Source of the DNA: an uncultured Planctomycetaceae bacterium
GTDB taxonomy: Bacteria > Planctomycetota > Phycisphaerae > SM23-33
Direction of reading: 5' to 3'
NCBI GenBank assembly: GCA_964531695.1
Contig: CAZHEH010000013.1
Span: 6,000-69,999 of the forward strand
Length of the DNA: 64,000 bases
The first letter of the stretch is position 1. Every line of letters starts with the position of its first letter. The notes under the pieces were generated by a model. The model was given only the letters and a program-made list of their open reading frames with translations, did not search any database and was not told where the DNA came from. Of this stretch, positions 3,989 through 34,219 are shown in pieces. The translations under genes and the position numbers were made by a program.

Positions 3989-4390
3989 GGCGATGCCCTT
4001 CGTGCGAGCCCGCGCCCGGCCCACCTCGGCAGGCCGCCTGCACGGCCGCGGCGGGCCTGTTCCGCAAGCCGGATGCATTACGGCGCGAGCGATACGGCAT
4101 GGACTGCGATGGCCGGCATGGGCGAATGCCGGCCAAGGCCCTTGGTAACAAGTGTCTTCCGACATCTCCGAGTGTACGAACGGCCAATCGGCATGCAACA
4201 AAAAACGCCGACACGGCAACCTCTGTCGCTTATGTCAATACAAAACACAGCCACCAAACACGCAATGCTGGCCGCACGTTGTGATGCCGATGGCGCCAAC
4301 ACATAAAAACAGGCGATTCGGACGTATTTCGCTCACGGCCGGGCGCGGCGGAAATTCCAGTTAAGAACCCGTAAACTGTCAATCATTCGC

Positions 4391-4419: not shown

Positions 4420-4547
4420 ACTCGTGGTTCAAATGTCCGGTCCGCTCGGTGCTCAACCGGACTCGAATGAAGGATCAGGTGTGCGTTGCTCGCGCATGCG
4501 ATCGTCTTGCTCGGCTCGCCCACCACAGTATCAAGAGAGGTGTACTC

Positions 4548-5351
4548 ATGCTCACGCTCAAGCGAAGGGGAGTCCTTCCAGTATTGGTCGCGGCTGTTCT
4601 ACTCGTCGGCGGTGCCGCGCAAGGCGCGGTCATCTGGGACTTCGAGAATCCGGACAACAACCCGGACAACGGCTACAGTATCTCCGAAGTCATTGATGCC
4701 GATGGCATTCAGGTCGGCGACAAGCTGATCCGTTTCATCGAGGTCACTACGTCCAAGACGCAAGGCACCGTTGCGCCGGGCGCGGACGCCATTCAGGTCA
4801 AGGGCGTGCGTTTCGCCGGGATGGGGCCCGACGGCTACGAGCTGGGCCTGAAGTTCAACGGCGGCTGGTCTGCCGGAGGGCAGGAGATCTCGGATACCAC
4901 CCTCACGTTCAGCGTCGAGGTCGTCGACCCGGAGCTCACCGAGGGCTGGCTGATCAAGGACAACAAGCTCTCGCTGGCCGCCTTCGGCGTGTCCGACCCG
5001 CTGCCCGGCACCAGCACCGAGCAGGGCGGTATCGTCAGCGTATCCGAGAACGTCTACGGCAAGGACACCGAGTTGTTCCTGCCCAACAGCCCGGACAACC
5101 CCTCGATCGCTGACAAGTTCGCCTACTACCGGACGGACAACGACAAGCAGCTCTACGACGAGGCGGAGTTCGACCCCCTCGCCAAGATCTGGATCAAGAA
5201 GGATATCGTCGCCAACGGCGGCGACCTCCAAACCGGCTCGGCTCACATCAGCGAGTTCTACCAGCTCTTCAGCCAGGTGCCCGAGCCGACCACGATGGTA
5301 TTGCTCGGCCTGGGCGGGCTGGCGCTGATTCGTCGGCGACGGCGCGACTGA
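4548..5351 (+). CDS. PEP-CTERM sorting-domain secreted protein
   Basis: N-terminal signal peptide MLTLKRRGVLPVLVAAVLLVGGAAQG; C-terminal VPEPTTMVLLGLGGLALIRRRRRD is the PEP motif plus TM helix plus Arg cluster; AGAGAGG RBS before the ATG. Confidence 0.8.
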   Translation: MLTLKRRGVLPVLVAAVLLVGGAAQGAVIWDFENPDNNPDNGYSISEVIDADGIQVGDKLIRFIEVTTSKTQGTVAPGADAIQVKGVRFAGMGPDGYELGLKFNGGWSAGGQEISDTTLTFSVEVVDPELTEGWLIKDNKLSLAAFGVSDPLPGTSTEQGGIVSVSENVYGKDTELFLPNSPDNPSIADKFAYYRTDNDKQLYDEAEFDPLAKIWIKKDIVANGGDLQTGSAHISEFYQLFSQVPEPTTMVLLGLGGLALIRRRRRD

Positions 5352-5439
5352 AGCTAAGTCGCATCCCCCGAGTCACCATCAGGGCCCCGTCCATGCGGCG
5401 GGGCCTTGTTCTGCGCGGGCGGCGCGGCGGCCGCGGCAT

Positions 5440-6099
5440 TCAGACCGACGGGCGGGTCGTCGCCTGCTCGCCCGGCGCCTCTCCCGAGGTCCGCTCCATC
5501 CACTCGTCCCGGTTCGCCTGAATCCGCCGGAGGATGTCCTCCATCTTCCGGCGCTTCTCCGGCGTGAGGTCCGCCTCGTACTCGACCATCTCCTCCTCGA
5601 TGGCCCGGTCGATCGACCACTCGTGCATCAGCACGCGGTGCGCCGCGAAGGTCATGCCCGTGCGGTCCCGCCCGTGCTGGCAGTGCAGCAGCACCGGGCC
5701 GGGGCTCGTGCGGATCGACCGCAGGATCTCCACGAACTTCTCCTCGCTGGGCACCAGCTCGCTGATCGGGATGTGCACGAACTCGGCCCCCGCCTCGGCA
5801 CACTCGGCCCGCTCCCGCTCCAGCATCTCCGGCTCGGTCGCGTAGGTCCGCAAGGAGATGACCCGCTCGATGCCGTACCGTCCCAGCGCCCCCCACTGGA
5901 GCCCCCGCGGCTGCCGGCACCGGTAGACCCGCCCCGGCTCGATCTCGCCGAAGTACCGCAGCCGGTAGGCCCGGAAGTAGAACACCACGGCGAAGACGAT
6001 CAGAACGACCGCCGCAAGAACCGCCAGCGGGCCGGGGCGAAACAGCTTGCGAATCCGCATCATGTGAGTGCTATGAGCCAATGGAGGCATCCTTTGCAT
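5440..6099 (-). CDS. Membrane-anchored CX5R phosphatase (protein tyrosine/dual-specificity phosphatase fold), paralog 1
   Basis: Short basic N-terminus plus a single TM (LAVLAAVVLIVFAVVFYF), then P-loop LLHCQHGRDRTG; alternative start at Met13-14 (end 6063). Confidence 0.75.
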   Translation of the reverse strand: MQRMPPLAHSTHMMRIRKLFRPGPLAVLAAVVLIVFAVVFYFRAYRLRYFGEIEPGRVYRCRQPRGLQWGALGRYGIERVISLRTYATEPEMLERERAECAEAGAEFVHIPISELVPSEEKFVEILRSIRTSPGPVLLHCQHGRDRTGMTFAAHRVLMHEWSIDRAIEEEMVEYEADLTPEKRRKMEDILRRIQANRDEWMERTSGEAPGEQATTRPSV

Positions 6100-6943
6100 G
6101 CGTGGAGGCCGCGCCGGCCTCGCCTTGAGCCGGCAGCGCCAACTCGGCCCGGACCAACGGGTGGTCCGAGCAGTCCGTGTCGATCATCTCACCGGCGGTC
6201 GCCCGCAAGCCGCGGACCACCATCCAGTCTACGCGCTGGCGCCCGGCCTGGCCGACGTCCGGCACGGCCGTCACGCCCGGCTCGGCCAGCAGGGCCTGAA
6301 TCCGCGGATCGTCGTCCGGCGTGTTCATGTCGCCCATCAACACGACGGGCTCGGCCAGGCAGCGGAACAGGGCCAGCAGCGTGCGGAGCTGCTCGACGCG
6401 GTCGCGCCGGCGGTCCACGTGCGTGACGAGCACATTCAGCCCGGTTCGGCCCCAATCCAACCGCGCCAGCAGGAAGCTGCGCTGCTTCTTCGTCCCGAGG
6501 ACGGGAATCCGCTGCCACGCCACGGCCGGCAGGCGGCTCAGCAGCCCGTTGCCGAAGCTCATCCGCCCGAAACGCCGCTCCGTCGGAGCGAAGAGCCACG
6601 GCAGCCCAAGCTTGCGACCGAGCCGGGCGGCCTGGTCCGGCCGGCCGGCCTTCGGGCCGTGGACCTCGTTCAGGCCGATCACGTCCAGCCCCCCGAGCGC
6701 GGCGGCCGTGCGGTCGAGGTCGGCACGGTTGCCGGCGCCCTTGCCGCCGTGCATGTTCAGCAGTCCGATGCGGATCGGCCGGTCGGTCGGGAACGGCTCG
6801 GGCGGCGAGTGCCCTTCCGGCGAAAACAGGCCGACACCGTGCGCCGGCCCGGCCGGGCAGCGCAGCGGCCATTGGGCCGCGCCACGCGCCATGCGCCAGA
6901 AGCCCATCGAAACGTCTTCCAGAATGTGGCTGAATCGTTTCAC
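6071..6943 (-). CDS. Endonuclease/exonuclease/phosphatase (EEP) family protein
   Basis: Motifs LNMHGG, GLNEV, VLMGDMNTP and SDHPLV are typical of the EEP metal-dependent phosphoesterase fold; immediately upstream of, and co-oriented with, phosphatase paralog 1. Confidence 0.7.
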   Translation of the reverse strand: MKRFSHILEDVSMGFWRMARGAAQWPLRCPAGPAHGVGLFSPEGHSPPEPFPTDRPIRIGLLNMHGGKGAGNRADLDRTAAALGGLDVIGLNEVHGPKAGRPDQAARLGRKLGLPWLFAPTERRFGRMSFGNGLLSRLPAVAWQRIPVLGTKKQRSFLLARLDWGRTGLNVLVTHVDRRRDRVEQLRTLLALFRCLAEPVVLMGDMNTPDDDPRIQALLAEPGVTAVPDVGQAGRQRVDWMVVRGLRATAGEMIDTDCSDHPLVRAELALPAQGEAGAASTHAKDASIGS

Positions 6944-7169
6944 GGGAGCGGTTCGGTTCCGGCAGGTCCCGTGAGCATATCAGGTCCGGGGCCCGCGAGG
7001 GAACGGTCTGCGCATGGGCTCGCCGGGCGCCCCGTTGAACAGGCCGTTCCTGCCCCGATCGGCGGAAGCCATGCTTCAACGAACCGTCGTCGTTTGGCTC
7101 GCGGCGGCCGAGACACTATACTCCTCGATCAGGGTCGCGCCGCGCGGGCGCGGCGCTCGGCCCCGCACC

Positions 7170-7847
7170 ATGCCGGAATCGGAAGCCAAAACCCGCCGCC
7201 GCCGCAAGTGGCTCGTGCCTGTGCTCCTCGTGGGCGGGCTCGTGGCCGTCGCCGGCGGCTATGTGCTGCACCTGCGGTACGTCCGCAAGAACTTCGACAC
7301 GGTCGTCGACGGCCAGGTCTACCGCTCCGCCCAGCCCGGCGCCGCCGACCTCCGCGAGTGGCGCGACGAGCACGGCATCCGCACCGTGCTGAACCTCCGG
7401 GGCAACGAGGAACGCGAACCCGTGCGGGAGGAGATCGCCGCGGCCGGGGAGCTGGGGCTGAACTACGTCTGCATCCGCCTGCCCAACCGCGAGCACCCGG
7501 ACCCGGAGGACATCGCCGGGGTGATCGAGGTACTCCGCACGGCCGAGCGGCCCATCCTGTTTCATTGCCGCTCGGGCGCGGATCGCTCCGGCGTCATCGG
7601 CGTGGTCGCGGCGATGCTCGTCGGCGGGGAGAGCTACGAGCAGGCGTCCGAGGAGCTTTCCTGGCGGCACATGCACATCGATCGCGACCCCGAGCACGTG
7701 GCGGGCTTCATGATGCTGTACGAGGACTACTGCCGCGAGAAAGGCCTGGACACCGCCGGCTGGGAGCAGTTCGAGCACTGGTTCGAGACCATCTACAGCC
7801 CGCCGCGGCGGGCGAAGCCGACGACCCGCCCCACCACGCGACCATGA
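7170..7847 (+). CDS. Membrane-anchored CX5R phosphatase (PTP/DUSP fold), paralog 2
   Basis: Basic N-terminus KTRRRRKW plus TM LVPVLLVGGLVAVAGG; P-loop LFHCRSGADRSG; its stop overlaps the start of the downstream ArnT-like gene (ATGA). Confidence 0.75.
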   Translation: MPESEAKTRRRRKWLVPVLLVGGLVAVAGGYVLHLRYVRKNFDTVVDGQVYRSAQPGAADLREWRDEHGIRTVLNLRGNEEREPVREEIAAAGELGLNYVCIRLPNREHPDPEDIAGVIEVLRTAERPILFHCRSGADRSGVIGVVAAMLVGGESYEQASEELSWRHMHIDRDPEHVAGFMMLYEDYCREKGLDTAGWEQFEHWFETIYSPPRRAKPTTRPTTRP

Positions 7848-9688
7848 CCTCGCCCGACGCGAGCGATTCGGCGACTTCGCTCGGCCCGGCCGGGCGCGAC
7901 GACGGGCCCGGCTGGCGAGCCGCCGGGCTGCTGGCCGCCGCCGTGCTGGCGGTCTACCTGTTCACCGCATCCCGGACCACGCTCTGGGACCGCGACGAGC
8001 CGCGATTCTGCCGGGCGACCGTCGAGATGCTCGAATCGGGCAACTACCTCTACCCCACCTTCAACGGCGAGCTGCGCCCCGACAAGCCCGTCGGCGTCTA
8101 CTGGCTGCTGGCCGCCTCGATCTCCCTGCTGGGGCAGACTTCTCTGGCCTGCCGGCTGCCCTCGGCCGTCGGCATCGCCGCCACCTGCCTGCTGACCTAC
8201 TACGTCGGGCGGCGGATGTTCGGGCGCCGCGCCGGGCTGGCGGCCATGGCCATTATGGCGACCGGCCCACTGGCGATGTTCATGGCGAACTTCGCCACCG
8301 CCGACGGTGTGGCGATGCCGCTGATCTGGGCGGCCGTGGCGTGCTACGTGGCGGCCGTGACGGCGCGCGCGCGGTGGTTCCACTGGGTCGGCTTCGCCGC
8401 CGCGGCGAGCGGGGCGATGCTCGTCAAGGGCCCGCTGGGCCTGATTCCGCTCGCCGTCGTCGGCGCGGCGTGGGTCTTCGCCCGCGGCCGGGCGCCGCTC
8501 GGCCGGCGGACCGTCCTCGCCGCGGGCGCCGCGACCGTCCTGGCGGCGGTGCCGTTCGTCGTGTGGCTGCTCTGGGCCGATCGCGCCAGCGGCGGCGAGC
8601 TGATCGCACAGGGCATCGGGCGGCACGTCATCGGGCGGGCCACGAGCCCGATGGAGTCGCACGGCGGCGGCGGGGCCGAGTACCTGCTGTACCTGCCGTA
8701 CTATCTGCCGGTGGTCGCGGGCGGGTTCTTCCCGTGGGTCGCCTTCTCCTTCGCGGGCGTGTCGGCGCTGGCCGGCGGGCGGCTCGGCGGACGCGCCGGC
8801 GGCGCCCTGCTGGCGGGCATGGCGCTGCCGGTGTTCGTGGGCTTCTCGCTGGTGGCGACGAAGCTGCCGCACTACGTCCTGCCCATGTGGCCGGGGCTGG
8901 CGGTGGCGACCGGCGCGATGCTCGCGCGGGCCGCGGCCGGGCGGCTGGCCGAGCGCGACGTCAAATGGCTGGCCCGCAGCGCGTGGACGCTCCGGCTGGC
9001 GGGCGCCGGCGCGGCCGTGGCGCTGGCGGTGGCGCCCTGGCTGCTGCCGATGCCGGGCTTCCGGTGGCCGTGCGCTGCCGTCGCGGCGGTCCTCGCGGCA
9101 ACGTGCCTGCTCGGCGCCCAGGATGTGGCGGCCAAGCGCTATCCCCGCGCCACGGCCACGCTCGCGGCGGGCATGCTGGCGGCGTACCTGCTGCTGGCGG
9201 GCCTCGCCGGCCCCGAGATCGAGCGGGCCAAACCGATTCCCGAACTGGCACGGCGGATTCGCGAGAATCACCCCGAGGCCCCGCTGGCAACGCTGGGCTT
9301 CGACGAGCCGTCGCTGTATTTCTACTCGCGCCGGCACGTGCGGGACTTCGTGAACGAGCCGGACGGGGCCGAGCGGGCCGTCGCGTGGCTGAACTCCGCC
9401 AAGCCGGGCATGCTGGTGACCACGGCGGACATCTGGCGCGCCCTCGAGGAGCGGATGGGCCCGCTGCCGGGTCGGGTGGTTCACCGCGCCGAGTTGGTCA
9501 ACTACGCCAAGCGGGGACGCCGGCGCGAGCTGCTGCTGATCGAGCGGGCGCCCCTCCGAGAGACAAGCGCCGCGGGCACGGCCGCAGGCCCGTATCGGCG
9601 CCGCGGCACCGGCGCCGGAGACGCCGGTGGCGCACCGTGGATGAGGATTACGTCGCCGACGGCGTCGGGCGCCGGTTGCGATGGATGA
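7844..9688 (+). CDS. ArnT/PMT-like GT-C glycosyltransferase (GT83/GT39 family), copy 1
   Basis: N-terminal WDRDEPRFCRATVEMLESGNYLYPTFNGELRPDKPVGVYWL is the canonical ArnT/PMT first periplasmic loop motif; 12-13 predicted TM helices; start overlaps the phosphatase stop. Confidence 0.8.
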   Translation: MTSPDASDSATSLGPAGRDDGPGWRAAGLLAAAVLAVYLFTASRTTLWDRDEPRFCRATVEMLESGNYLYPTFNGELRPDKPVGVYWLLAASISLLGQTSLACRLPSAVGIAATCLLTYYVGRRMFGRRAGLAAMAIMATGPLAMFMANFATADGVAMPLIWAAVACYVAAVTARARWFHWVGFAAAASGAMLVKGPLGLIPLAVVGAAWVFARGRAPLGRRTVLAAGAATVLAAVPFVVWLLWADRASGGELIAQGIGRHVIGRATSPMESHGGGGAEYLLYLPYYLPVVAGGFFPWVAFSFAGVSALAGGRLGGRAGGALLAGMALPVFVGFSLVATKLPHYVLPMWPGLAVATGAMLARAAAGRLAERDVKWLARSAWTLRLAGAGAAVALAVAPWLLPMPGFRWPCAAVAAVLAATCLLGAQDVAAKRYPRATATLAAGMLAAYLLLAGLAGPEIERAKPIPELARRIRENHPEAPLATLGFDEPSLYFYSRRHVRDFVNEPDGAERAVAWLNSAKPGMLVTTADIWRALEERMGPLPGRVVHRAELVNYAKRGRRRELLLIERAPLRETSAAGTAAGPYRRRGTGAGDAGGAPWMRITSPTASGAGCDG

Positions 9689-9965
9689 GCATCAGGTTTC
9701 GGATGTAGATGAAGCTGTTGAGCGAATAGGCCAGGATGAACAGGGGGTCCGCCCGCTTGACGGCGTACACGAGCAGGCCGGCACTGCCCACGATGCTGAG
9801 GTACCAGAACACCTCGGGCACCACGCTCTTGCCGGCCTTTTCGCTGGCGATCCACTGAATGAGGAACCGCATTCCGAACGCACACTGGGCGATGAAACCC
9901 ATCACGAACCACGCGTCCAGCTTGCTGACCAGCTCATTCCACATCTCGGCGAGCTTCTCCGTCAT
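9648..9965 (-). CDS. LAB_N (lipid-A-disaccharide synthase N-terminal domain) small membrane protein
   Basis: 105-aa protein with WFVMGFIAQCAFGMRFLIQWIASEKAGKSVVPEVFWYLSIVGSAGLLVYA typical of the LAB_N/DUF family partnered with DPM1-like GT2 and ArnT-like GT-C; overlaps the upstream GT2 gene. Confidence 0.65.
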   Translation of the reverse strand: MTEKLAEMWNELVSKLDAWFVMGFIAQCAFGMRFLIQWIASEKAGKSVVPEVFWYLSIVGSAGLLVYAVKRADPLFILAYSLNSFIYIRNLMLIHRNRRPTPSAT

Positions 9966-10701
9966 CCTGCGGCTCTCCCATCTCCGTGGTGGTGTAGCGG
10001 ATGGCGCGGGACTGCATCCATCGCAGCGCCATGATGTCTCGGATCGCCTTGATCCGATTGCGAACCCCGTACTTGGCCACGCCGGCGACGCGCGGCCGGT
10101 GGTTGACCGGAATTTCCTTCACGGTGAACCCGCCCATGCGGGCGAGCGTCGGCAGGAACCGGTGCAGCCCGTTGAAGAGCTTGAACGACTCGGCCACCTC
10201 GCGGCGGAAGACCTTCAAGCTGCATCCGGCGTCGTGGATCGACTCGCCGGTCATCCAGTTGCGGAAGCGGTTGGCGTTGCGGCTGATCCAGCGGCGCAGG
10301 CCCGTGTCCCGGCGGTTCTTCCGCCAGCCCGTGAGCATGTCGCACTCGCCGCTCTCGACGTGCTCCAGCATCCGCGGCAGCTCGGACGGATCGTTCTGGA
10401 GGTCGGCGTCCATCGTGGCGAGGACCGCACCCCGCGCGGCCCGCAAGCCCGCCTCCAGCGCGGCGGTCTGCCCGCTGTTGGCGTCCATCAGGATCACTCG
10501 GAGCTGCGGCGTGTCCCCCCGCATCTTCGCCAGAAGCTCTCGCGAACCGTCCGTGCTGCCGTCGTCGACGACGACGAATTCCCAACTCCGCCCGATCTCA
10601 TCCGCCGCCGCCTTCACCTCGTCTCGCAACGTCTCGAGGTTCTCGACCTCGTTGTACGCCGGCGCGACGAACGAGATATACACGCCCTGGTCTGCTGTCA
10701 T
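9934..10701 (-). CDS. GT2 polyprenyl-phosphate sugar synthase (ArnC/DPM1/GtrB-like)
   Basis: VYISFVAPAYNEVENL, VVVDDGSTDGS, DADLQNDP and the C-terminal FTVKEIPVNHRPRVAGVAKYG are hallmarks of this family. Confidence 0.85.
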   Translation of the reverse strand: MTADQGVYISFVAPAYNEVENLETLRDEVKAAADEIGRSWEFVVVDDGSTDGSRELLAKMRGDTPQLRVILMDANSGQTAALEAGLRAARGAVLATMDADLQNDPSELPRMLEHVESGECDMLTGWRKNRRDTGLRRWISRNANRFRNWMTGESIHDAGCSLKVFRREVAESFKLFNGLHRFLPTLARMGGFTVKEIPVNHRPRVAGVAKYGVRNRIKAIRDIMALRWMQSRAIRYTTTEMGEPQDDGEARRDVE

Positions 10702-11005
10702 GGTCGTGACTCTACCGCGCTGTACGTGCCCCCGCACGCGACGGTTTGCGGCCTACGCGCGATGACCCGGCCCCGCCGGGTCGCTTGGGAGCGGCCGGGG
10801 GCGCCGCTGCAAGTACGCCGAGGGACTGCCATCCCTCGGCGCCGTGCCGCCATGCCGCCATGCCGCAAAGCCGCCCGGGACCGGGCCGCCCAGCGCCGAG
10901 AGCCCCGGCGGTGCGTGCGTTGGAGGAATTCACCCGCGGGGAAGCGCCCGCGAGCGACCGAGCCCGCGCTTGCCTGCGACGCGGCGGCGTGGTAAAGCCC
11001 TTGCC

Positions 11006-12358
11006 ATGGTCGACGCCGCCACAAAACGCAAGAAGGTCTACACGATCCTGCTGATCGTAGTCCTGGCCACGATACTGGTCAAGGGCGGGCTGGTGGTCCG
11101 CTCCAACGTCAAGACCCCGCCGACGCACAAGGACTACCCCCGCTGGCATCGCATCGCGCGGCGGGCGCTGGAGGGCAAGACGCTCGCCGACCCGCGCGGC
11201 GCGGAGGCCGTCGCCATCGAGGACCACGAGGGAGAGGTCGGCTTCTACAAGCTGCCGCCCGCTTGGGCGATCTACACCGCCCCGCTGGGGCTGTTCCAGG
11301 TCTTCGGGGCGTACGTGTACACCTACTACTACCTCAGCGTCGGCTGCGGGGTGCTGTGCGTCTTCCTGGCCATGCGGACCATCCACGGGCGCTGGCTGCC
11401 CGAGGACCCGTGGAAGTGCGTGATCCCCGTGTTCTTCTTCCTGCCCCTGGCCGTCGACGACCTGCACAACGGCAACACGAGCTTGATCCTGCTGCTGCCG
11501 CTCATGGCCGGGGCGTACCTCGCCTCGCGCGGGCGGCGCGTGCTGGGTGCGCTCGGCTGGGGGCTCTGCGCGGCGCTGAAGGCCTACCCGGCCGCGGCCG
11601 TCGGGGCTCTGCTGTTCGTGCGGCGCTGGCGGCTGATGCTGCTGTCCGTCGCGGCCGCCCTGGCCTGGACGCTGCTGATTCCCGGGCTCATCCGCGGCTT
11701 CGAGCGGACGTGGAACGACAACCGGGCCTGGGCCGAGCGCATCGTCATGCCCTACCTCGAAGGCAAGGAGAAGACCCAGTGGGACAGCAAGGCCCATAGC
11801 GTGCGGAACCAGTCGCTGTGGGGCGCCGTCACGCGGTTCACGCGGCCTCTCAACGCGATGGGCGAGTACGCCGACGAAGATCCCATCTACGTCAACTTCC
11901 TGTCGCTCTCGTCCAAGGAGTCGACCATCATCTTCGCGGCGCTGGTGCTGATCGCGGCGGGCATCACGGCCGGGGTCTGCTGGCGGGCCGGCCCGCCCAC
12001 CGGCCCGCTGACGACCGCCTGCGACTACTCGCTGGCGATGACGTTCATCCTGCTGGCCTCGCCGCTGGTGTGGACGTACTACCTGACGGTCCTCCTGCTG
12101 CCGATGACGCTGGGGGCCGAGGTCGCCCTGCGCCACCGGAAGCACCCGCTGGGCAAGATGTGCCTGTGGGCCTTCGTCATCACGGTGCCGCTGTTCTTCG
12201 GCGGGCTGAGCATGTGGGCGCGGGCGTTCGGCACCCTCGGCTGGATCGGCGTGCTGTGGTACGTCGTGCTGCTCGTGCTGCGGGCGCGGATGAGCGAGCT
12301 GGAAGGGGCGGACGGACCGACAATGGCGAATGAGGAAGCCCGAACGACGAATCCATGA
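11006..12358 (+). CDS. GT87/DUF2029 family integral-membrane glycosyltransferase (mannosyltransferase-like)
   Basis: Polytopic membrane protein with the conserved DDLHNGNTSLILL loop and multiple TM helices characteristic of DUF2029/GT87; start moved to MVDAATKRKKVYTILLIVVL. Confidence 0.55.
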   Translation: MVDAATKRKKVYTILLIVVLATILVKGGLVVRSNVKTPPTHKDYPRWHRIARRALEGKTLADPRGAEAVAIEDHEGEVGFYKLPPAWAIYTAPLGLFQVFGAYVYTYYYLSVGCGVLCVFLAMRTIHGRWLPEDPWKCVIPVFFFLPLAVDDLHNGNTSLILLLPLMAGAYLASRGRRVLGALGWGLCAALKAYPAAAVGALLFVRRWRLMLLSVAAALAWTLLIPGLIRGFERTWNDNRAWAERIVMPYLEGKEKTQWDSKAHSVRNQSLWGAVTRFTRPLNAMGEYADEDPIYVNFLSLSSKESTIIFAALVLIAAGITAGVCWRAGPPTGPLTTACDYSLAMTFILLASPLVWTYYLTVLLLPMTLGAEVALRHRKHPLGKMCLWAFVITVPLFFGGLSMWARAFGTLGWIGVLWYVVLLVLRARMSELEGADGPTMANEEARTTNP

Positions 12359-12429
12359 CGAAGTCCGCATGACGATGCCGCATGGCCGCCTCATTCCGGA
12401 TTCGGGCTTGTCTCGTCACTCCGGCGTCG

Positions 12430-14061
12430 TCATTCGTCGTTTTCCGCGCTAGCGTACAGGCGGAACCGGTCGCCCGGCTCGTCGGACACGGGGAAGCTGT
12501 CCACGAATCGCAGGTTCGCTCGTTCGAGCCGGCCGCCGACGGCCGGCGCTTCGGCCGCCTTCCGCGACACGAGAACGTAGCGCGTCGATGCCCCGAGCTC
12601 GTCCGGTTCCAGTACGTACTCGACCGGCCGGTCGACGTAGAAGAGGAACGCCTCGTAGCCGGGGTCGTACACGTGGGCCGTCTCTCCGGGCGGCACATGC
12701 TCCGCCACGGCCGCGGCGGCTCGGCGGTTCGGCGCATCGTGTGCCCCCACGTGGGCAACGACAGTGCCGGTATACAGCAGTATGCTGACGGCCACGACGC
12801 CGGCCGTGGCGAGCGACAGCAGCGGGCCGCCCCGAAGCTCACGCCAGCGCCGGATCAGCCCCGCACAGAGCGCCACGGCCAGCACGGCCGCGGCGACCGT
12901 GGCGGCCGAGACCTCGAGCGCCACCCCGGCTACCGGCCGGCCCATCCCGGCCAGTAGCACGACACAAACGGCAACGCCCGCCACCCCGGCGGCCGGCACG
13001 GCCAGAAGCGCCCGCCAGACGCCGTCGCTCCACACCGTCCGCCTGTGCTCGCCGAGCACCCACCCGACGACGATCGCCCCGAGCGGCAGCACGGGCAGCG
13101 CGTAGCGCGACAGCATGCCGGGCATCAGGCACAGCACCACGAAGCCCGCGACCATCCCCGCGCGGACCGCCCGGAAGGTCGGCCGACGCCCGGCCGGAAT
13201 CTGCCGCACGAAGTACGGAACCCACGCCAGCGGCAGGAACAGCAGCCACGGCAGCAGATACAGCGGCGCCTTGACGATGTTCCACGCCCAAAAGCCCCAC
13301 AGCATCTCCTCCGGCAGGATGCGCCCCCAGGCCTGACCCGACATGGCGCTCATCCGCTCGGCCCCGGCCCGCTCCCGCGCGAGCAGCAGCCACCCCACGC
13401 CGATCGCGAGGATCAGCGCGACGCCCGCGAGGTGCTGGAGGTCGAAGATGCGCTTCAGCCGCCGCTCCGAGTGCAGCACGAGCAGAACCGTCGCGTAGAA
13501 CGGCGCCGCCAGGAACGGGCCTTTGATCAGCCCGCCGCAGGCCAGCAGCAGCGCCGGCGGCAGCCACAGCCACCAGCGATTGCGACCGGCCGACCAGCCG
13601 TCGAGCCACAGCACCGTCGCCAGGCCCGCCAGCGCCATGTAGACACCCTCGATCTCGATCTGGCGGCCCTTCGCGACCGCCCCGACGCACGTGAGCAGCG
13701 CGCACGCCGCCACGAGCCGCCCGCGGGCACTCATCCACGGCGCCCGCCCCACCGCCAGCAGCAACGCCAGCGCCAGCAGCGACAGCGCCGACGGCAGCCG
13801 GGCCGTGAACTCGTCCTGAACGCCCGTCAGGGCGAACGAGCCCGCGACGATCCAGTTAATCCCCGGCGGCTTGTTGAAGTACGCCCGCCCGCCGACGTAC
13901 GGGACGATCCACTCGCCGGTCCGCAGCATTCGCACGGCCGGGAGGACGCGGCGTCCCTCCTCGCCCCGGAACTCCTCCCGGCCAAGGTGCGGAAGGTACA
14001 CCACCGCCCACAGGACGAGCACGACGGCGAGCGCATGCTTGCGTTTCGGGAAGACTCTCAT
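12430..14061 (-). CDS. ArnT/PMT-like GT-C glycosyltransferase (GT83/GT39 family), copy 2
   Basis: GREEFRGEEGRRVLPAVRMLRTGEWIVPYVGGRAYFNKPPGINWIVA is the ArnT-type DE-rich periplasmic loop motif; about 13 TM helices; C-terminal soluble domain. Confidence 0.8.
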   Translation of the reverse strand: MRVFPKRKHALAVVLVLWAVVYLPHLGREEFRGEEGRRVLPAVRMLRTGEWIVPYVGGRAYFNKPPGINWIVAGSFALTGVQDEFTARLPSALSLLALALLLAVGRAPWMSARGRLVAACALLTCVGAVAKGRQIEIEGVYMALAGLATVLWLDGWSAGRNRWWLWLPPALLLACGGLIKGPFLAAPFYATVLLVLHSERRLKRIFDLQHLAGVALILAIGVGWLLLARERAGAERMSAMSGQAWGRILPEEMLWGFWAWNIVKAPLYLLPWLLFLPLAWVPYFVRQIPAGRRPTFRAVRAGMVAGFVVLCLMPGMLSRYALPVLPLGAIVVGWVLGEHRRTVWSDGVWRALLAVPAAGVAGVAVCVVLLAGMGRPVAGVALEVSAATVAAAVLAVALCAGLIRRWRELRGGPLLSLATAGVVAVSILLYTGTVVAHVGAHDAPNRRAAAAVAEHVPPGETAHVYDPGYEAFLFYVDRPVEYVLEPDELGASTRYVLVSRKAAEAPAVGGRLERANLRFVDSFPVSDEPGDRFRLYASAENDE

Positions 14062-14186
14062 AGGGCCGGTGCCGACGCCTCCGGCGGCCGGGCGAAATCG
14101 CCCTCGATCCGCGGGACGCGGGGATTATACTGGCGTGACCTGATTCTCGCACGGCCGTGCCGCCACGGCCTCTCCGAAAGCTCGCC

Positions 14187-14864
14187 ATGGCAGACCCCCC
14201 AAAAAACCGACCGCGCCTGTCCCGCCGGAGACGCCTTCTCATCTGGCTCGGCGCCATCGCCGCCCTGGCCGGGGGCATGTACGCCGTGTGGGACGGCTGG
14301 CTGGACGACCACGTCATCCCCAAGAGGTGGGGGCGGATCGCGCCCGGCGTGTACCGTAGCGGCATGCTGGAGGCCACGCTCGTGAAGCAAACCCTGGAGC
14401 GGCACGACATCGACGTGCTGATCCAGTTCAACGGACAGGAGCTCAGCGACGCCAAGCAGAAGGCCATGGAGGACGCGTGCGACGAGCTGGGCATCGAGTT
14501 GCTCCGCTTCCCCATGGCCGGTGACGGCCTGCCGCCGAACCACGACGTGTCCGTCTACGCCGACGCGGTCGCCGCGATGCACCGCGCGCGTCAGGACGGC
14601 AAGACGGTCGTGATCCAATGCAGCGCGGGCACGAACCGAACCGGCGCCGTCGCGGCGATTTACGAGGTCCTCGTCCTCGGCCGGTCCGGCGAGGAGGCCT
14701 ACGAGCACCTGCTCGACTATGACTGGGACCCCGAAGACAACGCCGAGATGATCGAGCTGGCCAACTCCCGCATGGGCGACATCGCCCGCATGCTCGTCCA
14801 GCGCGGGGCGATCGACCGCGTGCCCGAGCCCCTGCCGGTCATCCGCCCGCCCGCGGGGGATTGA
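14187..14864 (+). CDS. Membrane-anchored CX5R phosphatase (PTP/DUSP fold), paralog 3
   Basis: Basic N-terminus RLSRRRRLLIW plus TM LGAIAALAGGMYAV; P-loop VIQCSAGTNRTG; divergent from ArnT-like copy 2; ORF could start at 14157. Confidence 0.7.
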   Translation: MADPPKNRPRLSRRRRLLIWLGAIAALAGGMYAVWDGWLDDHVIPKRWGRIAPGVYRSGMLEATLVKQTLERHDIDVLIQFNGQELSDAKQKAMEDACDELGIELLRFPMAGDGLPPNHDVSVYADAVAAMHRARQDGKTVVIQCSAGTNRTGAVAAIYEVLVLGRSGEEAYEHLLDYDWDPEDNAEMIELANSRMGDIARMLVQRGAIDRVPEPLPVIRPPAGD

Positions 14865-14966: not shown

Positions 14967-17291
14967 CTACTCCGGCCGGGCCGTGCGCGTGTGGCTCAGC
15001 GCGAGGTTGCGCATCAGCGCGAAGGCCGTTTCCGGGGCGTAGCCGTCCACGACGTAGGACGAATAGCCCACGAGGCCGGCGGTGATGTCTTCCCGGCTGT
15101 AGTAGATGATGGGCCGCCCCGCGACGCGGACGACGCGCAACGGCAGCCGCTTTTCGAGCCGTCGCTCGCCCGTCCTGCGGCGGTAGCTCACGTCCTCGAT
15201 CCTGATGCTGTGTTTGTCGACGTTCAGCAGCGGGTCGGACGCCTCCACGCGTCGCAGTGCGCCGCGGCCGTACAGCGTCTCGATCATCTCCTCGGCCGCC
15301 TTGGCGAACTCCTCGTCGCCGCCGACCGCGTCCACCACGAGCACATGCGGCCCGCCCTCGACGAACTTGCGGAGGGCGGCTAGCTGCTCGTCGGTCAGCT
15401 CGAAGTCACCGGTGCCGCTCAGCGTGGCGATCGAGGCCTCGGTCTCGGGCAACTCGGCGATGTCGATCGGCCCCACGACCTCGACCCGGGTGCCGTGCTT
15501 GTGCGCCATGATGCGCGAGAACCGCTGCCAGGCGAGCGGCTCCGGGTCGTGATTGCCCTCGAACGCCAGACGCGCCACGGTGACGGTCGGCAGCTTGTCG
15601 TCGCCTTCGGGCTCCTCCGGCCAGACCTTCGACCCGCGCGCGAGCAAGGACTTGTCCGTCACGTAGGCGGCGATATTGGCGGCCGCCTGGAAGGCCCACT
15701 GCTCGGTATCTCGCCGCTGGAGTTGCCACGACCGGGACAGGTCCGCGTCGGTGTGAATCACCAGCGGCCGCACGCCGTTGGAGATGACCCGAAGATTCAC
15801 CCGGCGGGAGTAGCGTCGGAGGTCGAACTGCACGTCCCTCGCGTAGATCGGATGATCGCGGGGCAGCGTCTCCAGCTCGTAGCGGGGGAACATCTCCTTG
15901 TAGATCTGGCGCATGCCGTGCCGGAAGCCGCCGCCCCCGCACTCGGCCACGCTGAGAATCGTCCCGCCCTGGTGGACGAAGCGGCGTATGCGGGCGATCT
16001 GCTCGTCGGTGAAGTTCGGCCGCTTGGCGCCGGAGATGTACAGGATCGGGGCGTCGTGCCACAGTCGGGCGGGGACATCGAGGTTGATGATCTGCCAGTT
16101 GATCTCGCGCCGCTCGAAGACCTCGGACACCCACCGCGTCAGCGAGGCCAGGTCCCGCGGACGGTTGTTCCAGTCGCCGTCAAACTGCAGCTTGTTGAAC
16201 AGAACCGGGCGCCGGCCTCGCACGAGAAACAGCATCGCGTAGGCGGTGGCGGCTTCCTTGCCGTACTTGCCGCTCCAGGAGCCGTCGTCCTTCTGGTCGT
16301 CGATGAGCCACATCGCGCCGGATTGGTACCAGTCCACCGTTCCGAAGTACTTGTAGCCGCTGGCAACGCCGACCCGCTCGATGCCGTACAGGTAGTAGTA
16401 CATGTCCCCGTGGCCGCGGACCTTCTTCGACGTGTTGAGCGTGGGTTCGTCGCCCGACGCGTCGATGTAGTTGGCGTCCAACCAGTCCAGCCCGCGCTGC
16501 AGCGAGGCCTGGACCTTCTTGCCGACGCCGCCGGCATCGCAGCGGATGAACTGATTGAGGAAGATGTTGTCGACGCAGACGTACATGCTCGCCACGCCGG
16601 CCGTGACCATCGTGCCCGACGAGTCCTCCTTCATGTGAGAATCCGCGCCGTAGTACTGCCACCCGCCGTCGGCCTTCTGCGTCTCGTACCAGTAGGTGTA
16701 CACCTTCTCCCAGTAGCCGGCCGGAATCTCCCAGTTCGCCGTCGCCCCGGCCCAGACGCCCAGCAGCCCGTACTGGCTGTTGGAGTTGTCGCCGCGGCTC
16801 TTACCCTCCCCGCGCGAGTCATAGCCGTAGCTGCCGTCCGCCGTGGATCGGATCAGCCGGTCCACGTCGAAGCGCAGGGGCTTGTGGTACGGCTTGCTCC
16901 GCTTGATGGCCGAGTAGAACGCCTGGCACCGCAGCCCCAGCTCGTAGGTCTTCTCGCTCTTGCGGTCGGCCATCCACTCCAAGGCGCGATCGGCCGCCTC
17001 CTCGGCACGCGTACGCAGCGCGTCGTCCTCGATGTAGTCGAGACTCTCCAGGATCGCGTAGGTCACCAGCGGCGTGCAGCCCTGCTTGTAATCCCCCCTG
17101 GGGAAGGGCCATTCCGCCCCCTCTTGACTCTCACACAGATAGCGAATGCCGTCGGCAATCGCCTTGTCCACGGCCGCGTCGAACCGCTCCACCTCATCGG
17201 CGGTCTTGAGATCGGCCGCATCCGCCGTGCGGCCGCACGAGACGTACGGAATCAAACAGCACAGGAGAATAAGCGGTAGGGTACTTCGCAT
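14967..17291 (-). CDS. Secreted alpha/alpha-toroid (prenyltransferase/squalene-oxidase-repeat-like) N-terminal domain fused to a DUF4159-like C-terminal domain
   Basis: Signal peptide MRSTLPLILLCCLIPYVSC; N-terminal half has aromatic/Gly-rich repeats (QYGLLGVWAG, GGWQYYG, DGSWSG) of the terpenoid-cyclase/prenyltransferase toroid fold; C-terminal 350 aa matches the architecture I recall for DUF4159. Confidence 0.5.
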   Translation of the reverse strand: MRSTLPLILLCCLIPYVSCGRTADAADLKTADEVERFDAAVDKAIADGIRYLCESQEGAEWPFPRGDYKQGCTPLVTYAILESLDYIEDDALRTRAEEAADRALEWMADRKSEKTYELGLRCQAFYSAIKRSKPYHKPLRFDVDRLIRSTADGSYGYDSRGEGKSRGDNSNSQYGLLGVWAGATANWEIPAGYWEKVYTYWYETQKADGGWQYYGADSHMKEDSSGTMVTAGVASMYVCVDNIFLNQFIRCDAGGVGKKVQASLQRGLDWLDANYIDASGDEPTLNTSKKVRGHGDMYYYLYGIERVGVASGYKYFGTVDWYQSGAMWLIDDQKDDGSWSGKYGKEAATAYAMLFLVRGRRPVLFNKLQFDGDWNNRPRDLASLTRWVSEVFERREINWQIINLDVPARLWHDAPILYISGAKRPNFTDEQIARIRRFVHQGGTILSVAECGGGGFRHGMRQIYKEMFPRYELETLPRDHPIYARDVQFDLRRYSRRVNLRVISNGVRPLVIHTDADLSRSWQLQRRDTEQWAFQAAANIAAYVTDKSLLARGSKVWPEEPEGDDKLPTVTVARLAFEGNHDPEPLAWQRFSRIMAHKHGTRVEVVGPIDIAELPETEASIATLSGTGDFELTDEQLAALRKFVEGGPHVLVVDAVGGDEEFAKAAEEMIETLYGRGALRRVEASDPLLNVDKHSIRIEDVSYRRRTGERRLEKRLPLRVVRVAGRPIIYYSREDITAGLVGYSSYVVDGYAPETAFALMRNLALSHTRTARPE

Positions 17292-17774
17292 GGCGGGGGC
17301 TCCGTCAACGGCGTATCGGGGGGTGTCCTGCTGCATCTTCATTATCCCCTATCGGTTGCGCCCGTGCAACGACAAAGCGCGCGATGCCGCCTCCGAACGT
17401 ACGGCGCCGTATCGTGGCATGGGCAAAGCGGGGACAGGCACGTCTCCGCCCGGACGGGCCTCCGCTGCGCTGCGTCTGGGCGTCGCTTGAGCCCGTCCCC
17501 GTTTTGCCGCCCGCGGCGAGCGCAGTCGAACCCGCCTTGCCGGCGGGCAGGCCGAACAGCGACAGGCAGCCGGGTCGCCCATCGCCACTGACAGCCGCGC
17601 GTGGCAGAACGTCTTCCAGTAGTTCGTGTTGATCAGAACGTGCCGCACCTGCCGCTTGCCCTGAACGTTCGGCACGCGTCAGCAGCAGCCGACGCGCTCG
17701 CCCGGCCGAATTCGGCTGGCGCCAGCGCAAAGGCAAGCCCCTGCAAGCTGCTTGCCTACAGGGGCTTACGTTGA

Positions 17775-17845
17775 CTGGGGATCAAGGATTCGAACCTTGA
17801 CTAACTGATCCAGAGTCAGTCGTGCTACCGTTACACTAATCCCCA
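17775..17845 (-). tRNA. tRNA-Gln (anticodon CTG)
   Basis: Manual fold of the reverse complement: acceptor TGGGGAT/ATCCCCA with U1-A72 and G73 as in bacterial tRNA-Gln; anticodon stem ACTGA/TCAGT with loop CTCTGGA; T-arm GGTTCGAATCC. Confidence 0.75.
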
Positions 17846-17967
17846 ATCGGCGGATCGTCGGCGCCGGCACGGCCGGCCCACGACTGACTCATGGGATCCA
17901 TCGTCCATACGGACGCCGACCTTGTCAAGCCCGGCAGGCATGGTGTGCCCGCTTCGCCGCCGGTAGA

Positions 17968-18456
17968 ATGCCGCAGATGGCCCCGGACGCAGCCAGTGCA
18001 TATCCGGAATGGATGGATCGCGCGATCGAGCAGGCACGCGAGGCGGAGCGAGCCGGCGACGTGCCGATCGGCGCGGTGATGGTACGCGACGGGCGGATCG
18101 TCGCGGCCGCCCACAATCGGCGGATCATCGACGCCGACCCCACCGCCCATGCCGAGATGCTGGCGATCCGCGCCGCGGCCGCGGCGCTGGGAGACTGGCG
18201 GCTGACCGGCTGCACGCTGGTGGTCACGCTGGAGCCCTGCCCGATGTGCGCGGGCGCGGCCGTGCTGGCGCGGCTGGACCGGCTGGTCTATGGCGCGCCC
18301 GACCCCAAAGCCGGCGCCGCGGACACGCTGTACCGCATCCCGACCGACGAACGGCTGAACCACCGCGTCGAGGTCGTCGGCGGCGTACGGGCGGAGGAGT
18401 GCGGGGCGCTTCTCCGGGATTTCTTCCGCCGGCAGCGGGCGCTGGGCAAGAAATAG
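17968..18456 (+). CDS. tadA: tRNA-specific adenosine(34) deaminase
   Basis: CDA-fold motifs HAEMLAIR and LEPCPMCAGA; about 160 aa. Confidence 0.9.
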   Translation: MPQMAPDAASAYPEWMDRAIEQAREAERAGDVPIGAVMVRDGRIVAAAHNRRIIDADPTAHAEMLAIRAAAAALGDWRLTGCTLVVTLEPCPMCAGAAVLARLDRLVYGAPDPKAGAADTLYRIPTDERLNHRVEVVGGVRAEECGALLRDFFRRQRALGKK

Positions 18457-33061: not shown

Positions 33062-34219
33062 CTATGGCGCCGGGCGAGTGCCAGCCTCACCGGCCTCGCG
33101 GCGTTCCTTCACCGCCCGGTAGTGCTGCCGGATGACCTCCTCGGCCGGCTTGCCCGCGGGCACGTAGGTCGTGTCCTCGGCGGGGTCCGTGCCGTGCCAG
33201 GGGGCGGTGCGCCACTCCCACGCGAGGTAGCCCGCCACGGCCGGCTCGTCCTTCCACGTCTCGAAGAACGCCTGGAAGCAGTCGGCCTGAACCTCCGGGG
33301 CCGGCTTGTCCACGGCCCGGTAGTAATCCCACGGGAACTCGGCACAGGTCTCCTGGTTGGGCCAGCCGACCTCGGTGAAGAGGATCTTGTGGTGCGGATG
33401 GTTCTCGTTGCGCCACTCCAGGATGTCCCGCTTGATCGGCCCCCAGGCGGCGCGAAGGCGGTCGAGCGTCGGCTCCTTGCCGCCGGTGAGGTCGTAGTAG
33501 GTTGTCATGCCGATGATGTCGAGCTTGTCCCACCAGGGGATGGCCTTGTAATGATCCCAGTTGGACGAGTACGCCAGCCGTCCGCCGTAGACCTCTCGAA
33601 CCTCGGCGATCAGCCGCTCCCACCGGTGCGCCTGGCTCTTCTCCGTGGAGACCAGCTCCGAGCCCACCATCAGCACGTCGACGCCCGTCTCCTGGGCGAT
33701 CTTCGCGTAGTGGAGAATGAAGGCCGTGTAGTCCTCCCACCAGTCGCCCCAATCCTCCGGCATGATCGTGCCCCGCCACTCGTCCCGCTCGGGGTTCTCC
33801 AGCAGGACGATGGGCATGAGCACGACCTTCATGGCCGGCTTGCCGCGCTCGGCGTCCTCCGAGCGGGCGTAGCGGATCATCTCGCGCAGGCGCTCGTCCG
33901 ACGGGTTCTTGCGGAGGTCCACCATGATGCTGGTGGCGGAGGCGTCCTCCTGGTGCCCGCGGACGACCAGCGCGACCGTGTCGGCCTCGACGCCGGCGAT
34001 CTCGCGGATCATCTCCTCGTACGGGTGCGTCGCCTCCGGGTGATGGAGCTGAAGCGCCACGCCTAGGAACTCCCGCGGCTGCGTGGCGATGACCGGCGGA
34101 CGACCGGCGGGCGGCTCCGCGTCGCCGCCGGCGAGCTGGAACACCACGACGGCCCCCACGGCCAGCAGGAAGACGGCCAGGATCAGCAGCTTGTCGCGTT
34201 GCGAGCCGGTCGAAGCCAT
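33062..34219 (-). CDS. Membrane-anchored TIM-barrel glycoside-hydrolase-like protein (GH113/GH26-like)
   Basis: N-terminal TM anchor LLILAVFLLAVGAVVVF; the ILFTEVGWP and WEW motifs are compatible with clan GH-A retaining hydrolases; family uncertain. Confidence 0.45.
   Translation of the reverse strand: MASTGSQRDKLLILAVFLLAVGAVVVFQLAGGDAEPPAGRPPVIATQPREFLGVALQLHHPEATHPYEEMIREIAGVEADTVALVVRGHQEDASATSIMVDLRKNPSDERLREMIRYARSEDAERGKPAMKVVLMPIVLLENPERDEWRGTIMPEDWGDWWEDYTAFILHYAKIAQETGVDVLMVGSELVSTEKSQAHRWERLIAEVREVYGGRLAYSSNWDHYKAIPWWDKLDIIGMTTYYDLTGGKEPTLDRLRAAWGPIKRDILEWRNENHPHHKILFTEVGWPNQETCAEFPWDYYRAVDKPAPEVQADCFQAFFETWKDEPAVAGYLAWEWRTAPWHGTDPAEDTTYVPAGKPAEEVIRQHYRAVKERREAGEAGTRPAP

Follow-up and report, generated by a model that had tools for sequence, protein, structure and literature searches.

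What do three membrane-anchored phosphatases of the protein tyrosine phosphatase (PTP) fold do among genes for the transfer of sugars from polyprenyl phosphate? The question is raised by a compact locus at positions 5440-14864 of a 64,000-nucleotide stretch of DNA (hereafter, the window) from an uncultured Planctomycetaceae bacterium (Phycisphaerae; SM23-33; contig CAZHEH010000013.1, positions 6,000 to 69,999). The locus consists of nine genes, denoted g3 to g11. In addition to the three phosphatases (g3, g5 and g11), these encode two ArnT-like glycosyltransferases of the GT-C type (g6 and g10), each next to a phosphatase gene; an ArnC-like glycosyltransferase of family GT2 (g8) and a small LAB_N membrane protein (g7); a GT87 glycosyltransferase (g9); and a phosphoesterase of the EEP family (g4). 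A preliminary description of the window proposed that the phosphatases dephosphorylate, and the GT-C enzymes then glycosylate, an envelope lipid, and presented this as an undescribed variant pathway. The functional pairing is backed by conserved adjacency, by gene fusions, and by the replacement of an LpxE-like phosphatase of the PAP2 family. The findings named in that description as refuting did not turn up: all P-loops are intact, the structures nearest to the phosphatases are atypical dual-specificity phosphatases, many of which act on molecules other than proteins, and relatives retain the pairing. As for novelty, the logic of the pathway was already known from LpxE/LpxF, RgtF/RgtD and RgtE, with CtpA as a precedent for the phosphatase; the PTP variant of it is indeed new.

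The reading that we favor, with a probability of about 0.5, is that the locus strips phosphates from an envelope lipid, probably lipid A, and adds sugars in their place, by means of PTP-fold enzymes. All functional statements made here rest on homology and gene context, from which we infer lipid A as the substrate, the sugar, the order of the steps, the assignment of phosphatases to lipid positions, and the side of the membrane.

Phosphatase partners of the GT-C enzymes

The tightest pair in the locus is g5-g6, a single transcription unit on the plus strand. The g5 gene (7014-7847) encodes a 277 aa protein with a transmembrane (TM) helix followed by a PTP domain (Pfam Y_phosphatase3, 42.2 bits), and its stop codon overlaps, by 4 nt (ATGA), the ATG at 7844 of g6 (7844-9688), which encodes a 614 aa ArnT-like GT-C (Pfam PMT_2, 65 bits, and PMT, 31 bits). 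The three matches to the PTP profile in the 64-kb window all fall within the locus and the adjacency repeats in relatives, which argues that the placement of PTP genes beside GT-C genes is not due to chance.

To characterize the relatives, we collected the top 80 genome loci around g6 homologs (34-45% identity), and annotated the neighbors from six-frame open reading frames (ORFs) with phmmer and our own profiles. The 80 loci come almost exclusively from Planctomycetota, with some from Acidobacteriota, Verrucomicrobiota, Gemmatimonadota and Desulfobacterota, and one from an alphaproteobacterium. The nearest homologs indicate that the window itself stems from a lineage of Planctomycetota, probably Phycisphaerae-like. 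In the 64 loci that were informative, that is, extended for at least 1.5 kb on both sides, a PAP2 gene is adjacent or fused to the GT-C gene in 45 (fused in 4), a PTP gene lies within 1.5 kb in 6 (4 of which also have PAP2), and neither is found in the remaining 17; the PAP2 profile was built from 3 sequences, so that some partners may be missed. In L057 (Poriferisphaera sp. WC338), which has no PTP partner, the sole PAP2 match is about 5.6 kb away from the GT-C gene. Further PAP2 fusions were detected in the protein search (P0150, P0154 and P0204). The only clear match of the PAP2 partner in the Protein Data Bank (PDB) is LpxE of Aquifex, a lipid A 1-phosphatase (E 1.5e-13).

P0122 and P0123, the nearest relatives of g6 (50-51% identity), each have, immediately upstream and without PAP2, a g5-type PTP that is 45% identical to g5, retains an intact P-loop, and overlaps the GT-C gene or is separated from it by 13 nt. 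Orthologs of g5 (34-45% identity) are located directly upstream of the g6-type GT-C gene in loci L170, L171 and L079, and divergently in L071; the gene order in L079 is PTP, GT-C, an extra PMT-family GT-C, LAB_N and GT2. No PAP2 domain, the domain that bears the KX6RP / PSGH / SRX5HX3D motifs of LpxE/LpxF, was detected in the 64-kb window by the PAP2 profile or by Pfam search of the called genes. The locus may work like LpxE/LpxF without belonging to that family.

In a neighbor-joining tree of 83 GT-Cs, the PTP-only loci with a g5-type PTP (the window, L170, L171, L079, L071 and L059) form one clade, the rest of the g6-type tree being dominated by PAP2 partners, and this distribution suggests that PTP displaced PAP2 once, as a non-homologous substitute. 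Locus L004 was scored as PTP-only as well, but its PTP is of a catalytically dead type, and the contig ends just after the GT-C gene. The displacement can be read from individual loci, too: L167 and L168 have the architecture of the window with PAP2 in the place of PTP (LAB_N, GT2, GT-C, PAP2, second GT2 and second GT-C), with an additional EEP gene in L167 and a second PAP2 in L168.

The second pair, g10 and g11, are divergent neighbors. The g10 gene (12430-14061, minus strand) encodes another ArnT-like GT-C of 543 aa (PMT_2, 45 bits), and g11 (14157-14864, plus strand) a 235 aa protein with a TM helix and a PTP domain (225 aa if translation starts at 14187, the probable start), for which DSPc is the best Pfam match (E 6e-7). 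The g10 clade is rare, with about 17 good homologs found. A scan of metagenomes detected a g11-type PTP (87-158 bits) directly beside the g10-type GT-C gene in 8 of the 10 loci that were distinct and informative in the close clade; in about 70 loci of a more distant clade, there is no g11-type PTP, second PTP-like gene, GT2 or YdjC beside the GT-C. In the cassettes of the close clade, the g11-type PTP gene usually precedes a further PTP-like gene, GT2, and YdjC. The product of this further gene has lost the catalytic Cys, which is replaced by Gly or Asp within the LPVLLHG/HD motif (HG or HD, followed by x5R). Such TM-anchored pseudophosphatases are encoded between the active PTP and the GT2 at L087:9280-9831, L090:10135-10758, L092:9398-9952, L095:6259-6897, L096:9277-9915, L004:6705-7259 and L015:7411-7971 (all on the minus strand). 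The conserved pseudophosphatase possibly serves as a phosphate-binding adaptor.

A gene of the YdjC family (NaxD-like) lies beside the GT2 gene in the cassettes of eight relatives (L087, L089, L090, L092, L095, L096, L015 and L004). In L096, the YdjC gene (10831-11715, minus strand) is directly followed by a gene for a UbiA-family prenyltransferase, and UbiA homologs likewise end the g10-type cassette, or lie close to its end, in L087, L089, L090 and L092. The locus in the window contains neither a YdjC nor a UbiA gene. The UbiA neighbors bring up the possibility that the phosphatases act on the sugar donor, dephosphorylating a polyprenyl-phosphate-sugar-phosphate. This is what the PAP2 enzyme Rv3807c does with decaprenyl-phosphoribose-5-phosphate, the product of which is then used by GT-C arabinosyltransferases; a cytoplasmic location of the PTP domain, as suggested by some of the fusions described below, would also suit donor synthesis. 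We consider this very unlikely, given that the window locus lacks the UbiA gene, that its donor synthase is an ArnC-type GT2, which makes the polyprenyl-phosphate-sugar directly, and that the UbiA gene of L096, located beside miaA, may be an unrelated housekeeping gene.

An exhaustive search with g11 yielded 694 cluster representatives, and fusions in metagenomic proteins were read among the top 150. The PTP domain, with an intact P-loop in each case, is fused to an ArnT-like GT-C through a TM helix in P0385, to PAP2 through a TM helix in P0289 and P0390, to Wzy_C (O-antigen ligase family) in P0398, where it is preceded by a TM helix, and to an Rce1-like domain in P0413. These fusions are independent evidence that connects the PTP domain with enzymes acting on lipid A or on lipid-linked glycans.

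The fusion to Wzy_C is compatible with a different role, namely, recycling of the carrier, where the phosphatases would hydrolyze undecaprenyl pyrophosphate (Und-PP) or another polyprenyl phosphate and leave the acceptor alone: O-antigen ligases and polymerases release Und-PP; the best NCBIfam matches of the PAP2 partners, far below the cut-off, are the Und-PP phosphatases SepP and PRK11837; and two g5 homologs are labeled "undecaprenyl-diphosphatase" by JGI. Moreover, LpxE-type PAP2 enzymes also hydrolyze Und-PP and phosphatidylglycerol phosphate (PMC6581854). Nevertheless, carrier recycling appears unlikely to us. An ArnT-type transferase supplied by an ArnC-type synthase releases undecaprenyl phosphate (Und-P), not Und-PP, so that no phosphatase is needed; a PAP2-PTP fusion would be redundant; and two or three dedicated carrier phosphatases in a small locus are hard to justify. 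Lipid A as the substrate explains the GT-C, PAP2 and O-antigen ligase fusions more simply than a carrier lipid does.

Enzymes encoded by the locus and their surroundings

The three phosphatases each possess an N-terminal hydrophobic helix and a P-loop with an intact CX5R signature: HCQHGRDRT in g3, HCRSGADRS in g5, and QCSAGTNRT in g11. The g3 gene (5440-6099, minus strand) encodes 219 aa, with a TM helix at residues 24-42 and a PTP domain (Y_phosphatase3, 45.5 bits, above the cut-off). The PTP profile yields 149 bits for g3 and 122 bits for g11, the latter of which reaches no Pfam gathering cut-off. The Cys, Gly and Arg of the P-loop are invariant in an alignment of 44 sequences, and CX5R is retained in all 120 of 120 g5 homologs.

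An AlphaFold2 model of g5 (mean predicted local distance difference test 87.5) adopts the fold of PTPs and dual-specificity phosphatases (DSPs). Foldseek comparison of this model yielded 255 PDB matches at E<=1e-3, and the top 50 are all PTP/DSP-fold enzymes; the nearest folds are atypical DSPs, namely, Siw14/PFA-DSP inositol-pyrophosphate phosphatases, DUF442, archaeal PTPs (SsoPTP), TpbA, PTPMT1, glucan phosphatases and RNA triphosphatases. At the sequence level, the Pseudomonas periplasmic phosphatase TpbA is the best PDB match of g11 and one of the best for g5 (with E values of about 5e-4 to 9e-4). Given these TpbA matches, and the Pfam names of the GT-C domains, PMT and PMT_2, one could view the PTPs as envelope-regulating protein phosphatases, or the GT-Cs as protein O-mannosyltransferases with unrelated phosphatase neighbors. 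Among the alternatives considered here, we regard a role in protein modification as the least probable. The TpbA matches are marginal; many of the atypical DSPs that are nearest in fold act on non-protein substrates (Siw14, PFA-DSP, PTPMT1 and glucan phosphatases); in the PDB, the GT-Cs match ArnT, not PMT; and a common lipid substrate is favored by the overlap within the operon, the conserved pairing, the fusions to GT-C and PAP2, and the substitution of PTP for a lipid phosphatase.

The closest g5 homologs located outside the GT-C cassettes, at L001:10001-11029, L002:5818-6993 and L172:7436-8702, carry an additional C-terminal extension of about 100 aa and are encoded beside GDE or ALGX genes or, in Tautonia plasticadhaerens, among tandem PTP genes. 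No GT-C genes are adjacent to the closest non-cassette homologs, P0002 and P0004. A candidate GT-C pairing in Tautonia (P0066) was rejected, as it consists of tandem PTP genes and the 601-aa protein encoded upstream is not a GT-C; neither could the alphaproteobacterial g5 homolog P0048 be recognized as a CtpA ortholog by its context, because it adjoins an MFS transporter, which is uninformative.

Both GT-Cs match only ArnT among PDB structures. The g6 family profile aligns with ArnT of C. metallidurans (5EZM) over the full length (residues 26-509; E 5e-31), and the g10 family profile matches the same structure with E 1e-16. The Asp (RDEP), Lys (DKP), Asp, Arg and Tyr (KLPHY) aligned with ArnT, which we take to be catalytic or Und-P-binding in the ArnT structure, are invariant or nearly so in 31 sequences of the g6 family. 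Against the NCBIfam ArnT equivalog PRK13279, g6 scores 93 bits and g10 47 bits, compared to a cut-off of 567. By these sequence comparisons, g6 and g10 are classified as members of the ArnT/GT83 family, but not as orthologs of the transferase for 4-amino-4-deoxy-L-arabinose (L-Ara4N).

The g8 gene (9934-10737, minus strand; 267 aa; Glycos_transf_2, 109 bits) encodes a GT2 with PDB matches to ArnC (E 4.5e-37), DPMS (2e-15) and GtrB (1.5e-14), and with 138 bits for NCBIfam ArnC against a cut-off of 529, which makes g8, too, a family member rather than an Arn ortholog. The alignment covers only residues 10-226 of ArnC (about 322-327 aa), and g8 ends at residue 267, without a hydrophobic segment. 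Overlapping g8 by 32 nt and located downstream of it, g7 (9648-9965, minus strand) encodes a 105 aa membrane protein with three helices that matches the entire 71-position LAB_N model (PF07578; 102 bits, cut-off 26.7). In the fetched loci, a same-strand LAB_N gene is present within 300 nt of 12 of the 14 close GT2 homologs, the other two being located at contig ends, and thus LAB_N is the obligate membrane partner of this GT2; g7 probably supplies the membrane part that g8 lacks. The top folds matched by a single-sequence model of g7 were SemiSWEET at a non-significant E of 0.3, from which no evidence was drawn.

The longest ORF of g9 (10844-12358, plus strand), a membrane glycosyltransferase, spans 504 aa and matches GT87 (PF09594; DUF2029; 86 bits, cut-off 25); the probable start is at 11006, giving 450 aa, as called in an identical public contig. 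No PDB sequence match was found for g9, and a g9-type GT87 was not found in any related locus, except L083, which is that identical contig, from the same organism. The g4 gene (6071-6943, minus strand; 290 aa; Exo_endo_phos, 65.4 bits) forms a unit with g3, which is downstream of it with a 29-nt overlap. The g4 protein has no evident signal peptide or TM helix and no PDB or NCBIfam match that would narrow down its function; g4 homologs (130-143 bits) are encoded no more than 5 kb away from the g6-type cassettes of L018/L167, L019 and L028.

The Pfam and profile searches thus agree with all domain assignments in the preliminary description (PTP-fold, EEP, GT-C, GT2, LAB_N and GT87), as well as with the alternating divergent and convergent arrangement, in which the transcription units are g4-g3, g5-g6, g8-g7, g9, g10 and g11. 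Its ten genes, however, become nine, and its left edge at 5354 belongs to a shadow ORF. The window is GC-rich (about 0.68), so that most of the listed ORFs are shadows, and the real genes were chosen by the frame indicated by GC content at third codon positions (GC3), together with translation and Pfam matches. The ORF at 5354-5920 on the minus strand has the wrong GC3 frame and consists of low-complexity sequence, and the PTP domain sits in 5440-6099. Likewise, the plus-strand ORFs 12382-12957 and 6098-7843 are shadows, and the listed 1196-aa ORF at 6098-9688 is g6 read through the upstream sequence, the true start being the ATG at 7844.

The GC content of the locus (0.69-0.73, compared to about 0.68 in the window) is native, as originally described, and the neighbors are housekeeping genes; horizontal acquisition was considered and, for these reasons, set aside. 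The surrounding 64 kb are ordinary chromosome, with recO, uvrB, secA, recG, holB, tmk, sua5, trkAH, glycoside hydrolase genes and tRNA-Gln. The latter (CTG anticodon; 17773-17846, minus strand) and a gene for a TadA-like deaminase (17968-18456, plus strand) are located about 3 kb to the right of the locus, and neither an integrase nor a GC shift marks an island boundary near the tRNA. On the left flank, g2 (4449-5351, plus strand) encodes the PEP-CTERM protein that had been noted previously (30 bits; weakly PepA-like, below the cut-off), and nothing ties it to the locus; on the right flank (14967-17342, minus strand), a 791 aa DUF4159/DUF4350 protein is encoded. Neither the PEP-CTERM nor the DUF4159 gene recurs in related loci, except for DUF4159 in the identical contig L083.

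Farther away, about 30 kb from the locus, genes for a galactokinase, an NAD-dependent sugar epimerase/dehydratase (355 aa) and a sugar nucleotidyltransferase (285 aa) at 42005-46399 (minus strand) could supply the nucleotide sugar to g8. The window also encodes a GH35 beta-galactosidase (1313-4219, minus strand), a GH113 (33062-34219, minus strand) and a GH4 (40456-41997, plus strand) glycoside hydrolase; the last of these calls overlaps that at 39501-40784 (minus strand) by about 330 nt, so that one start codon is probably miscalled. A Sua5/YrdC domain is fused to a low-molecular-weight phosphotyrosine phosphatase domain (LMWPc) at 61156-62403 (minus strand); the latter belongs to another fold of Cys phosphatases and has no relation to the locus.

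Known pathways and the substrate of the phosphatases

In the known pathway that removes the 1- and 4'-phosphates of lipid A and adds galacturonic acid (GalA), the enzymes are the GT2 RgtE, the PAP2 phosphatases LpxE/LpxF, and the ArnT-like RgtF/RgtD, and rgtE, lpxE and rgtF are consecutive genes in Oligotropha (PMC7663294). The locus has the same logic and parts as this Rgt system of Rhizobiales, Aquifex and Caulobacter, the likeness being one of gene content and layout, and most of the g6 relatives display an Rgt-like arrangement of GT2, GT-C and LpxE-like PAP2. In contrast, the window encodes three PTP-fold enzymes and no PAP2, its GT2 has no TM helices of its own and is paired with LAB_N, and EEP and GT87 are added.

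The precedent for a PTP in this role is CtpA of Caulobacter crescentus, a PTP homolog with the catalytic signature, the loss of which leaves 1/4' phosphates on lipid A in the place of GalA; it was proposed to substitute for the missing LpxF (PMC9393093). This precedent is genetic, the role in lipid A modification being implicated by the lipid A of the mutant, and what CtpA has in common with g3, g5 and g11 is membership in the PTPs and the catalytic signature. The ctpA gene lies beside msbA-lpxJ-kdtA-lpxK and, unlike g5 and g11, has not been reported as paired with a GT-C gene. A partly comparable context exists in L079 (4443-8247, plus strand; Phycisphaerales UBA2266), where genes for an ABC exporter, NTP_transf_5 and DUF374 directly precede the PTP/GT-C pair, DUF374 being the family to which LpxJ, a late acyltransferase of lipid A, belongs (PMC6148475). 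A DUF374 gene is found nearby in only one other locus, L042, and there is none beside the PTP genes of the window, which are not adjacent to lipid A assembly genes of the msbA-lpxJ-kdtA-lpxK type.

Other systems share parts of the locus. ArnC and ArnT (with ArnE/F), the closest solved homologs of g8, g6 and g10, likewise use a polyprenyl-phosphate-linked donor and periplasmic transfer; ArnT, however, adds L-Ara4N onto a lipid A phosphate with no phosphatase involved, and the locus lacks ArnA/B/D genes and has LAB_N in place of ArnE/F. The combination of a GT2, the YdjC-family deacetylase NaxD, which acts on Und-P-linked N-acetylgalactosamine, and a GT-C is the set for lipid A galactosamine modification in Francisella and Acinetobacter (PMC11279074). 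The g10-type cassettes of the relatives match this combination, whereas the systems for lipid A hexosamine modification of Francisella, FlmF2/NaxD/FlmK (with LpxF), and of Bordetella, Lgm, have no PTP or pseudophosphatase partners, and the window has no YdjC. The GtrA/GtrB/Gtr(type) glucosylation systems likewise have three components, namely, a synthase of family GT2, a small membrane protein, and a GT-C supplied with Und-P-sugar, but the small protein is GtrA rather than LAB_N, the acceptor is O-antigen, and no phosphatases are involved.

We favor lipid A as the substrate because of the LpxE-like PAP2 partner, the YdjC/NaxD and LpxJ-family neighbors in relatives, the Rgt logic, and the CtpA precedent. 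Under this model, g8 would use a nucleotide sugar to charge polyprenyl phosphate with the sugar, with g7 holding g8 at the membrane and perhaps helping to flip the product; g5 and g11, and possibly g3 with the EEP enzyme g4, would remove phosphate from the acceptor lipid; g6 and g10 would transfer the sugar from the polyprenyl-phosphate donor to the freed positions; and g9 may attach one more sugar. The presence of two GT-Cs, with a phosphatase for each of them, is in keeping with the two phosphate positions of lipid A, although which pair would serve which position is a guess.

The same chemistry might be directed at another acceptor, for example, a core sugar that bears phosphate, a phosphoglycolipid, or some lipid or polysaccharide specific to planctomycetes, instead of the 1 and 4' positions of lipid A. 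The window contains no lpx genes; GT87 is not conserved with the cassette; the EEP phosphodiesterase suggests phosphodiester-linked head groups; and members of the PTP family are encoded beside polysaccharide genes such as ALGX and GDE. Set against this are the LpxE-like nature of the PAP2 partner, the neighbors of the YdjC/NaxD type and LpxJ family in relatives, and the fact that every one of the 80 best g6-type loci belongs to a phylum that has an outer membrane, and we view a different acceptor as improbable.

Several observations weigh against the exchange of lipid A phosphates for sugars by PTPs. No lipid A biosynthesis genes are present in the 64-kb window, and the literature searched yielded no structure of lipid A from this lineage. 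Given that LpxE-type PAP2 enzymes, as noted above, also act on Und-PP and phosphatidylglycerol phosphate, resemblance to LpxE does not fix the substrate. Close g5 homologs outside the GT-C context adjoin GDE, ALGX, an MFS transporter or, in Tautonia, tandem PTPs, and hence the PTP family is not dedicated to a lipid role. Within the catalytic domain, no general-acid Asp upstream of the P-loop is invariant in the alignment, and the consensus Asp position is occupied by Cys in g5 and by His in g3. The neighbor-joining tree was built without support values. Finally, the side of the membrane on which the PTP domain resides receives conflicting answers. The lysine/arginine bias predicts an N-in orientation with the catalytic domain outside for g5, g11 and the g5 family (73:11), the bias being weak in the g11 family (70:40), and the PAP2-TM-PTP fusions place the domain in the periplasm, given the established topology of PAP2; the GT-C-TM-PTP and PTP-Wzy_C fusions place it in the cytoplasm. 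The C-terminus of CtpA is cytoplasmic, as depletion through an ssrA tag works, as opposed to the periplasmic domain uncertainly predicted here.

Implications for lipid A phosphatases

The chemistry and the cassette logic (rgtE-lpxE-rgtF) are known already, and a PTP homolog, CtpA, has been genetically implicated once. A literature search for lipid A phosphatases of the dual-specificity-phosphatase type led to no relevant work other than the CtpA paper, and those on LAB_N, on ArnT with tyrosine phosphatase, and on planctomycete lipid A returned nothing relevant. What is new is the evidence that PTP and GT-C form a conserved module, which occurs as a fusion in some genomes and stands in for the LpxE-like PAP2 throughout a clade. 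New, too, are a locus that depends exclusively on PTP-fold enzymes; the obligate association of LAB_N with a truncated GT2; and the pseudophosphatase partners in the sister cassettes.

The lipid A phosphatases responsible have eluded detection in several lineages: LpxF has not been found in Caulobacter (PMC9393093, PMC7663294), and neither LpxE nor LpxF was detected in Aquifex by an earlier survey (PMC7663294). The locus described here and its relatives provide independent genomic evidence for PTP-fold enzymes in this role. Tentatively, membrane-anchored PTPs might make up another widespread family of phosphatases for lipid A, analogous but not homologous to LpxE/LpxF, that has fully displaced PAP2 in a Phycisphaerae-like clade and some dead copies of which may have become adaptors. 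The organism itself would then build a phosphate-free, glycosylated lipid A with cysteine-based phosphatases only; we rate this wider proposal somewhat below an even chance.

If the favored reading is correct, it would generalize the single genetic hint from CtpA, give concrete proteins to test, and represent a clear case of non-homologous enzyme displacement inside a conserved gene cassette. Substitution of sugars for lipid A phosphates alters the charge of the outer membrane, resistance to antimicrobial peptides, recognition by innate immunity, and the demand for phosphorus.

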